Positions 9,811 to 38,440 of a stretch of DNA of 64,000 nt are shown here, piece by piece. Numbering within the stretch: the first letter of the stretch is position 1; every line of letters begins with the position of its first letter. The notes beneath the pieces are model-generated. The model saw only the letters and a program-made list of their open reading frames with translations, searched no databases and had not been told where the DNA came from. Position numbers and translations under genes: made by a program. Location of the stretch: NCBI GenBank assembly GCA_951406725.2, contig OX597837.1:36146001-36210000 (forward strand), written 5' to 3'. Origin of the DNA: Octopus vulgaris. Taxonomy: Eukaryota.

Positions 9811-9995
9811 ACATATATATATATATATATACATATAGGAGAGGGATGACCACTATGTGGACAGCCCTTATGCTAGAAGTAGATCCGCTATGGTCTTACC
9901 GCTAAGAAATGTTCTCAAGAAAAATTTACCAAACACCAGAACGTAAGCGAGCCAGACAAATGACAAGTAACAAAAATATAGATTAATCACAAACA

Positions 9996-24857: not shown

Positions 24858-25013
24858 TATATATATATATATATATATTTAAATAATGAGGAAGATATAT
24901 TGAATATTAATTTAATTAATATCAATTTAAAACCAGTAGTCTAGCATACAAAAATCTGAAGAATCAGAGAAAATTCTAATACATGTGTATATTTAAATAT
25001 TACCTGTGGAACG

Positions 25014-25090
25014 ATCGTACTGACGAGTCCTACGGACGAGGGATTACGTAAGTGATTCATTCGTTAATTGGCGAAACCTAGGTCTGCGAT
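25014..25090 (+). ncRNA. Type I hammerhead ribozyme motif with intact core
   Basis: ATCGTA-CTGACGA-GTC..GGC-GAAA-CC-TA-GG-TC-TGCGAT: stem I 6 bp (one G.U), all core residues present, palindromic stem III ACCTAGGT, predicted cleavage after GUC at 25084. Confidence 0.7.
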
Positions 25091-25253
25091 TAATTCTTGT
25101 TTTTTATATAATTTTCATCTGTCTTGCCCGCATATTGTTCTGGTGTCCGCTGAATTTTTTTTCTCTAGAGAACATTCTTTTCTTTGTAATTTGATCGCAG
25201 GTGATCTACTTCTAGCATATGGCTGACCACATAGTGGTTTTTTAGCCCTTTAA

Positions 25254-25309
<56 letters not shown>

Positions 25310-29716: not shown

Positions 29717-29927
29717 GCGGCGAGCTGGCAGAAACGTTAGCACGCCGGGCGATATGCTTAGCGGTATTTCGTCTGTCTTTACGTTCTGAGTTCAAATAAC
29801 GCTGAGGTCGACTTAACTTTTCATCCTTTCGAGGTCAATAAATTAAGTACCAGTTGCGTACTGGAGTAGATCTAATCGACTGGCCCCACTCCTCCAAAAT
29901 TTCGGGCCTTGTGCCTAGAGTAGAAAA
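29717..29927 (+). mobile_element. SINE family B, full length (founder of the adjacent tandem array)
   Basis: ggcggcgagctggcagaaacgttagcacgccggg..gagttcaaat..gtgcctagagtagaaa. Confidence 0.85.
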
Positions 29928-30630
29928 TAATATTTTCCTCGCGTTGGAAGGCCGGCGATCTGGCAGAAACGTTAGCACGCTAGGCGAAATGCTTAGCGAA
30001 ATGCTTAGCGGTCGATAAATTAAGTACCAGTTGCGTACTGGAGTAGATCTAATCGACTGGCCCCACTCCCCCAAAATTTCGGGCCTTGTGCCTAGAGTAG
30101 AAAATAATATTTTCCTCGCGTTGGAAGGCCGGCGATCTGGCAGAAACGTTAGCACGCTAGGCGAAATGCTTAGCGAAATGCTTAGCGGTCGATAAATTAA
30201 GTACCAGTTGCGTACTGGAGTAGATCTAATCGACTGGCCCCACTCCCCCAAAATTTCGGGCCTTGTGCCTAGAGTAGAAAATAATATTTTCCTCGCGTTG
30301 GAAGGCCGGCGATCTGGCAGAAACGTTAGCACGCTAGGCGAAATGCTTAGCGAAATGCTTAGCGGTCGATAAATTAAGTACCAGTTGCGTACTGGAGTAG
30401 ATCTAATCGACTGGCCCCACTCCCCCAAAATTTCGGGCCTTGTGCCTAGAGTAGAAAATAATATTTTCCTCGCGTTGGAAGGCCGGCGATCTGGCAGAAA
30501 CGTTAGCACGCTAGGCGAAATGCTTAGCGAAATGCTTAGCGGTCGATAAATTAAGTACCAGTAGCATAATAGGATAGATCTGATCTACTGGCCTCATACC
30601 CTAAAATTTCGGCAGCATAAAGTAGAAAAG
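29834..30630 (+). repeat. 177-bp tandem repeat derived from SINE B (4 full units plus a partial unit)
   Basis: Units start at 29834, 30011, 30188, 30365 and 30542; near identical. Confidence 0.95.
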
Positions 30631-37443: not shown

Positions 37444-38440
37444 AAAAGTAAAAAGTGAAAAAAACTACAGAAGGCTTGTTTTAAAAGGTTAAAAAATATA
37501 TATTTGAGTCAATATGTCTGAAGAATATTATAAATTTTTTTCTTACAATGACATAGTTTAGAAGAAATGGCCGGTTTCGCGTTCAGCTTTTCAAATTTCT
37601 TACATCGTTATGTTTATGTTGAGAAGAGTTCTAGATAAGGGGAGGTAATAAGTGATTTCTTCCGGTGTAAGGGAGACAATCGCTTAAAATTTTTTGTCTT
37701 TCCTTTGGAGTGAATTTCTCTGTATAAGTATGTTGGAATGGTTAAGTCTGGGCTTGTACTTTTCAATGAAGAATGTTTCCTTGTTTAGTCTAATTTGTGT
37801 TGGTGTTCCGATAGCACATTGGTAAAATGGAAAGATTAAAAATTGTGGTAGTAGTTGCTTTGCGCATTTCTCAATGTGCTCACTAAAAGGTATCATTCTG
37901 TATTCTGGGAATGCAATCTGTTGTCGATGCAGTGTGCATCTACGTCTGAGTGATAGTTCCGTGGATCTCACGTAGTCTTGGTGGCAGCCCGAGCATTTTA
38001 TGACATAAATTATGTTTTCAGAGGCACAAGTAAAATTAGATTTGATCTTGATTTCTGTCCCTCTTTGAAGAGGAATTCTGATCCTTCTAGCAGGTTTGGA
38101 CATGTTGCACAGTTCGGTCTACCACATTTTTTTACTTTTGCATCCGTAATTTCAGAAAACAATTTTGCCTTTGTGAGAATCTTTTTAAGTGATTTAGGTT
38201 GTTTGTAGCTTTTAATGATTTGGTGTATGTTTAAAATTTCCTTTAATTTGGGGTCCTTACTAAGTATTGGTAAATTCTGGGTGATGATGGTGAAGGCTTC
38301 TTTGTTTCTGGGGTTGTATGTGGATATGTAAGGTAGTATTTTCGGGGAAGGTGTGTTGTTGTGTTGAACTTTTCTTAAAGTTTCTATGTTGATTTCTGTT
38401 GCACGTCTGATCCCATCCTCTATGAGTTGAGCTGGGTAAT
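37440..38440 (-). mobile_element. Penelope-like element 3' part with GIY-YIG endonuclease
   Basis: LPYISTYNP..CGRPNCATC..FTCASENIIYVIKCSGCHQDYVRSTELSLRRRCTLHRQQI..SEHI..RLNKETFFIEKYKPRLN; ORF at 37684-38103. Confidence 0.85.

Follow-up and report, generated by a model that had tools for sequence, protein, structure and literature searches.

Non-LTR retrozymes of animals, described for coral, mussel, and axolotl in the sections consulted of PMC7229834 and bioRxiv 10.64898/2026.07.22.740005, consist of tandem units, non-coding and low in GC, that each carry one type I hammerhead ribozyme. They occur as monomers, dimers, and long arrays, and alongside Penelope elements. In axolotl, the ribozymes HHR_Amex1/2 comprise subgroups with a weak palindromic or a more stable helix III. 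Of nine predicted frog retrozyme dimers, eight failed to cleave in vitro (bioRxiv 10.64898/2026.07.22.740005, in part). Hammerheads are also present in the terminal repeats (pLTRs) of Penelope elements, whose described features include truncation, inverted copies of the 5′ part, tails, and insertion into microsatellites (PMC8557442, in part). In the giant squid genome, 235 hammerhead matches have been counted and, in the part of PMC6962438 consulted, are left undescribed. A repeat family of Octopus vulgaris resembles animal retrozymes in coding content, GC content, unit organization, range of copy forms, co-occurrence with Penelope elements, and subgroups of helix III. We describe it here from one of its copies. 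That copy lies in the window, a stretch of 64,000 nt, and was compared with a microsatellite-rich genome of 2.8 Gb in 227 contigs.

An earlier note, made from the letters of the window, had placed a core-intact type I hammerhead at 25014–25090, and every feature was found there when re-read (table 1). Core residues C3-U4-G5-A6-N7-G8-A9, G12-A13-A14, A15.1-U16.1, and H17 are complete. When the Rfam scan proposed in that note was run, RF00163 (Hammerhead_1) aligned exactly to this interval over the full model with all core residues, but the score of 27.6 bits (E = 3.4e-4) is under the cut-off of 34 bits, and at gathering thresholds Rfam has no matches across the window. The bare core pattern is not significantly enriched in the window (five matches vs. 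2.4 expected) and the folding z-score of the motif alone is an uninformative −0.48; the case for a hammerhead therefore rests on its copies. Genome-wide, the same architecture of intact core and long stem II has 68 exact matches (54 + 14) and none in reversed controls, so the motif is not a product of chance. The interval is a genuine hammerhead-ribozyme motif with a predicted cut site.

Table 1. Features of the hammerhead copy and its flanks, in window coordinates
Feature	Position	Strand	Basis or remark
(TA)n left end, likely insertion target	24858..24878 (about)		Direct reading; TA at family loci
Inverted piece, unit positions 1-123	24877..24997 (121 bp)	-	94% identity to natural unit
Forward 5′-truncated piece, unit positions 305-558	24997..25252 (256 bp)	+	Holds ribozyme; 94.6% identity to natural unit
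Type I hammerhead motif	25014..25090	+	Direct reading, Rfam full-model match, copy comparison; predicted cut 25084/25085
Stem I ATCGTA/TGCGAT	25014-19 / 25085-90	+	Direct reading; 6 bp, one G-U
CTGACGA core half	25020-26	+	Direct reading
Enlarged stem II	25027..25072	+	3-bp base 25027-29/25070-72, then internal loop
Stem II base GTC/GGC	25027-29 / 25070-72	+	Direct reading; 40 nt enclosed
Alternative hairpin GTCC-TAC-GGAC	25027..25037	+	Present, GAGG next; not conserved
Stem II inner helix	25035-39 / 25061-65	+	Paired across 101 copies with double changes
Stem II apical helix	25041-47 / 25052-58	+	GTAA loop 25048-51; paired across 101 copies
GAAA core half	25073-76	+	Direct reading
Palindromic stem III ACCTAGGT	25076-83	+	Direct reading; subgroup variant
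Predicted cut	3′ of C25084, after GTC	+	Direct reading
(TA)n right end	25254..25300		After family's preferred 3′ end (…CCCTTTAAATA)

The motif had been assigned to an element of ∼380 bp bracketed by (TA)n. The TA flanks stand, but the 380 bp combine two segments from a longer unit. Many loci match the 378-bp stretch, in two oppositely oriented parts that meet at 24997, and the inverted piece of the stretch is the part of the unit that comes after 25252 in intact tandem units. From reading of flanks, the unit is ∼535–558 bp (about 550 bp), tandem, and non-coding, with a GC content of 33%, below the 45–50% limit that defines retrozymes. On contig C2, 18.7 copies form an array of period 550, whose 5′ portion is inverted and which is bordered by (TA)n on either side. 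Its longest stop-free frame is 108 aa, 11 of its units are 88–99.8% identical, and there are 14 exact core-pattern matches at the locus. With tandem units a few hundred bp long that each have a type I hammerhead, the family fits the definition of non-LTR retrozymes at the level of sequence; the copy in the window stands alone. As far as these sources were consulted, PMC7229834 gives a unit length of 150–450 bp, which is exceeded here, and bioRxiv 10.64898/2026.07.22.740005 gives 51–972 bp, a range that includes this unit. Unlike in the animal retrozymes described there, most copies in the octopus are truncated and inverted fragments. The window copy is such a fragment, a truncated and partly inverted piece of a ∼550-bp non-coding repeat family. 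Elsewhere in the window, positions 9849–9994 (minus strand) are a 71%-identical, (TA)n-ended 3′ fragment of the same retrozyme family without a ribozyme, likely from another subfamily, and positions 29833–30612 hold a 177-bp tandem repeat with 4.4 copies and 97% matches.

The family has at least several hundred genomic copies; all counts are lower bounds. A 20-mer from the 3′ end has 304 exact matches (0 for the control). A second subfamily (B), ∼77–82% identical and of the same layout, is represented by 28 exact matches to an 18-mer. By eye, a stretch of ∼30 nt located 3′ of the ribozyme (25155–25190; …CTCTAGAGAACATTCTTTTCTTTGTAG…) is nearly the same in both subfamilies and is possibly an RT-recognition or structural element. 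Sixty loci were chosen solely by the 3′ 20-mer among the first 100 matches listed, leaving out array units, neighboring matches, loci already examined, and the last few on the list. Their median span is 288 bp, 14 include the whole ribozyme, and 34 have both orientations. TA repeats are at one or both ends of 56 loci and at both ends of 31, a raw count without a background control. The 3′ end, judged by eye, is within ∼12 nt of the equivalent of 25252 in 23 of 30 loci and ∼120 nt further in seven. Because ends lie in (TA)n, target-site duplications are unreadable. Downstream of the predicted cut, copies end after ∼170 or ∼290 nt, and many extend across the cut, which points to a circular or uncut multimeric template.

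Loci of the family carry the insertion signature of Penelope elements, namely 5′ truncation, an inverted 5′ copy, a 3′ tail, and a microsatellite target. Copies that are 5′-truncated, often inverted, and TA-flanked in the manner of Penelope insertions fit a non-LTR retrozyme. Likeness to Penelope pLTR hammerheads, as described in the parts consulted of PMC4209133 and PMC8557442, covers 5′ truncation, the inverted upstream copy, the 3′ tail, the (TA)n bias, and a hammerhead within ∼170 nt of the 3′ end. The octopus family differs in having no ORF, a tail of ∼120 nt versus 30–40 nt, and a full 6-bp helix I versus the minimal form. The same loci bear on whether a satellite-like repeat could have spread at the DNA level with a fossil hammerhead aboard. 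The 18.7-unit array and the identity among its units are in keeping with such a repeat, but fixed 3′ ends, variable 5′ truncation, and inversions point to reverse transcription, and core and pairing are kept across subfamilies about 20% apart. We give the satellite explanation hardly any credence.

A potential source of the enzyme is an abundant Penelope family with at least 150 copies at ≥89% protein identity and (TA)n insertion. Its open frames exceed 800 aa and include an RT (Pfam RVT_1, E = 4.6e-7), a CxxC linker, and a sub-threshold match to GIY-YIG. The linker is read as Neptune-type, a label based on the description in PMC8557442 (in part) and not on a tree. Two of its loci, L207:1665–4217 (plus strand) and L208:2399–4858 (minus strand), hold open RT-endonuclease frames of 850 aa and 819 aa, respectively, preceded upstream by a frame of >320 aa. 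In their 3′ region GAAACCGGT is present and, by eye, there is no intact CTGANGA nearby. The window itself has a fragment of the GIY-YIG end of this Penelope at 37687–38118 (minus strand), by eye the same as in L126, L207, and L208. Comparisons of 30 loci by BLAST, and of 19 of them or their relatives by model, found no sequence common to the unit and the abundant Penelope, with the sole exception of one locus that holds a separate copy of the family. This Penelope is thus a candidate partner by target and co-occurrence only. A Pfam search of four flanking fragments returned nothing.

Copies could instead be pLTR fragments of an autonomous Penelope that was not found, rather than members of a separate non-autonomous family. 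Truncation, inversion, the tail of ∼120 nt, and a preference for TA are features known from Penelope elements (PMC8557442, in part), and frog retrozymes are reported to resemble pLTRs (bioRxiv 10.64898/2026.07.22.740005, in part). However, the defining RT and GIY-YIG ORF between pLTRs is absent from the family. Copies that extend further 5′ do not reach an ORF but continue through the same non-coding spacer of ∼300 bp to the next unit, no linked long ORF is present in the 169 loci scanned, and the abundant Penelope lacks similarity to the unit save at the one locus with a separate family copy. An origin as pLTR fragments is unlikely.

We consider it highly probable that the window holds a truncated, partly inverted copy, likely no longer active, of a tandemly repeated non-coding family (∼550 bp) whose type I hammerhead is conserved, and that this family is likely a non-LTR retrozyme mobilized by Penelope-like elements. 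The unit, its array, the layout of copies, core conservation, and covariation are observed; cleavage, circularization, and the source of the enzyme are what we infer. Tandem transcripts would be cut once per unit after GUC into monomers of ∼535–558 nt, with ligation then turning these into circles. Nicking of (TA)n would be the work of a Penelope RT/GIY-YIG protein, with priming at a TTTAAAT-like site that lies downstream of the cut by ∼170 nt (or ∼290 nt). Arrays would result when a circular or uncut multimeric template is copied beyond the cut site, and early termination with strand inversion would produce copies like that in the window.

Conservation across copies supports a functional hammerhead in the lineages that gave rise to them. 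The alignment has 101 of 133 ribozyme-region matches, with partial matches and all but three array units dropped. In 82 of the 101 copies, the core is intact. Paired cells amount to 91.9% overall and 91–92% in each of five named helices, compared with 26–39% in slid controls; these counts use a structure that we named from the same sequences. Double changes are found at nine of 23 pairs, a number reached in eight of 500 shuffles, and compensatory changes occur in stems I, II, and III (e.g., C-G/U-A at 10.2–11.2 and G-C/A-U in both stem I and the inner helix of stem II). Unguided RNAalifold recovers just a 4-bp apical helix. Alleles common to at least three copies are in none of 10 non-CpG core columns versus 70 of 196 other columns (Fisher P = 0.017; 72 of 101 rows kept). 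By subfamily, neither comparison is significant (A, 0 of 10 versus 46 of 196; B, 0 of 11 versus 40 of 191; P of 0.12–0.36), and P values are optimistic because copies are related. Private mutations accumulate in the core at the background rate (0.8% vs. 1.2% in subfamily A and 2.1% vs. 2.3% in B). The lack of shared core alleles, together with private changes at background, suggests selection in source lineages and decay after insertion. Tolerant sites vary, in that N7 is C, A, or T and H17 is G in just one of 101 copies. With stems that covary and no shared change in the core, the view that this is a hammerhead of the Penelope or retrozyme kind is borne out.

The feature that sets the family apart is stem II. 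In all 101 copies, G10.1 and C11.1 are separated by a span of 38–50 nt, which departs from the canonical short helix II and loop 2 and from the ∼4 bp and short loop of animal retrozymes in the descriptions consulted. There is precedent for an enlarged loop 2 in PLE-X1_sMoe (∼35-nt loop 2) and PLE-X1_sTam, which are listed as deviating (PMC8557442 File S2, in part); these are from lycophyte plants and their sequences are unrelated to the octopus family. Variable hammerhead stems have been reported, and in the part of PMC3088659 consulted we noticed no stem II of such length. The ∼40 nt enclosed by the base of stem II in the window copy had been taken for a loop; they instead form a conserved, base-paired, interrupted hairpin. 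From its base, stem II proceeds through an internal loop and an inner helix to an apical helix. The U after helix I is kept in 98 of 101 copies, and TAAT is kept before the 3′ strand of helix II; these residues may take part in a tertiary contact between loop 1 and loop 2. The long stem II is a family trait, an inherited and structurally constrained hairpin on a normal base of 3–5 bp, and not a switch. A search for a short-stem-II ancestor with the same flanks was unproductive, as the canonical pattern has three matches that all belong to one unrelated family. GGACGA might nevertheless derive from an ancestral GGAC-GAAA.

The earlier note had proposed a two-state stem II, in which the catalytic stem II would face competition from the GTCC-TAC-GGAC hairpin, with cleavage regulated as a result. 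In the window copy, the fold with this hairpin (−20.2 kcal/mol) is 0.3 kcal/mol above the minimum (−20.5 kcal/mol) and 5 below the catalytic fold (−15.1 kcal/mol), and 39 of 101 copies, chiefly those of subfamily B and the nearest A copies, could form a 3-bp version (GTC…GAC). The full hairpin, however, is present in just 10 of 101 copies, including one of 13 in the stem-III group of the window copy. Its predicted population averages 3%, exceeds 0.5 in two of 101 copies, and is 7% in the window copy. Covariation favors the distal partner: of 46 copies with C at position 10.2, 43 have G at the distal partner and one has G at the alternative partner. Furthermore, GGAC is accounted for by the inner helix of stem II, and GTCC and TGGC of the window copy are each found in one of 13 members of its stem-III group. 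A folding switch is very unlikely. In these folding predictions, the alternative hairpin appears to mark a weakened copy and not a regulated one.

Stem III differs among copies. Across 101 copies, the forms include ACC-GCC-GGT (17, the commonest), ACCGGT (14), ACCTAGGT (11), and ATCGGT (11), and perfect palindromes total 29. The palindromic stem III that the earlier note emphasized is real for the subgroup of the window copy, where it would favor cleavage as a dimer, but it does not define the family; among the 68 exact pattern matches it is in 10. The octamer of the window copy has a self-duplex of −11.4 kcal/mol and forms no hairpin alone, so a partner ribozyme would be needed, as is reported for dimeric hammerheads with such a stem III (parts of PMC4209133 and PMC7229834). 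There is no neighboring ribozyme nearby. The catalytic fold of the window copy is predicted to be 5.4 kcal/mol above the minimum, and the probability of the G10.1–C11.1 pair is 0.05, in comparison to >0.5 in 48 of 101 copies. The copy had been regarded as potentially active; solitary and predicted to fold poorly, it is probably dead, an ordinary decayed insertion. Likewise, under the rule of two consecutive intact ribozymes (bioRxiv 10.64898/2026.07.22.740005, in part), it is not an active element. Alternatively, a host transcript might have co-opted the window copy as an active ribozyme. It does have an intact core, a 6-bp stem I, and 94% identity to relatives. But besides being solitary, with a stem III that forms no hairpin alone and a weakly predicted closing pair of stem II, it carries a change found in one of 67 subfamily-A copies, private mutations accumulate neutrally in copies, and no host exon was recognized by eye among the open frames of the window. 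Co-option is extremely improbable.

Contigs were available from four runs of three studies, which we presume to be RNA, though none is recorded as such, and they cover 24–30 of 30 bins of the unit. In one of the four runs (X6), a contig of 584 nt (553 + 31) with a depth of 80 wraps from the end of the unit to its start. This is a weak hint of a circle or a tandem transcript, and DNA is also possible. The letters at its junction match the subgroup of locus L176 and not the window copy. In the copy at L176:1460–2110 (minus strand), which represents this subgroup, the base of stem II is 5 bp long and its inner helix is ACAA/TTGT. The L176 subgroup is a good candidate for a live lineage. Three array units treated as circles have fold z-scores of −2.1 to −4.4 (15 shuffles each). 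We also considered, and rejected, a splice switch in which GTAAGT at 25048 would be the donor site for a Penelope-like intron that spans the ribozyme. GTAAGT is kept in just 66 of 101 copies, is lost in whole subgroups, and is explained by an arm of the hairpin; contigs of the four presumed-RNA runs have no splice joint at that place. A 150-nt skip in run X6 that resembled splicing is accounted for by ∼148 unplaced letters.

Hammerheads of other families in this genome were compared as well. Across the genome, six matches exceed the Rfam cut-off and none is from this family (73 candidates scored). A second repeat family of unrelated sequence (L171, L172, L175, and L210–L239; e.g., L172:1501–1608, plus strand) has a type I hammerhead, TA/ATT flanks, and inverted 5′ parts. 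Its stem II (GACCCA…TGGGTC) spans 73–80 nt and looks branched, three of its copies are above the Rfam cut-off, and the full core pattern is in 14 of 30 loci. The few canonical hammerheads with a short stem II (L170, L078, L079, L173, and L174) belong to other families. We also considered a link to the half cores of Naiad elements (HHR_half_core; PMC8557442, in part), which are similar in having core halves 35–50 nt apart and in targeting TA, including in cephalopod Naiads. The link was rejected: in Naiad_Ovul, GAAA precedes CTGATGA, the reverse order by eye, and five motifs of the octopus family are absent from the parts of the PMC8557442 supplement examined. Separately, Naiad_Ovul and the preceding entry (PMC8557442 File S5, in part) have 3′ ends with GTC-GAAA upstream of CTGATGA, each beside complementary arms. 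By eye, this arrangement may represent a rearranged hammerhead instead of a half core.

Families such as this one are missed because the enlarged stem II falls under the Rfam cut-off and outside descriptors with 7–17-nt spacers, the kind given in the PMC8557442 methods (in part). Tentatively, and with more doubt than confidence, we raise the possibility that stem II, long and interrupted, serves as a functional module, such as an arm that binds protein or limits the rate and that would keep multimers or circles intact for reverse transcription. At least two of the TA-targeting repeat families in this genome (38–50 nt and 73–80 nt) may have gained such a module independently, which would point to a class of large-stem-II animal hammerheads missed by short-spacer descriptors and, in the first family, by the Rfam cut-off.

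In the full-text literature we found no report of a cephalopod retrozyme or of this family; subscription journals, Repbase, and preprint supplements may hold one. The element is of a known kind and its ribozyme has a modestly new architecture, the long stem II. It adds a retrozyme family from a cephalopod. The Penelope insertion signature on dispersed copies supports the proposed, still indirect, link between retrozymes and Penelope enzymes. Stem III subgroups, with a palindrome or a 3-nt loop on one backbone, constitute a natural test of monomer versus dimer cleavage.
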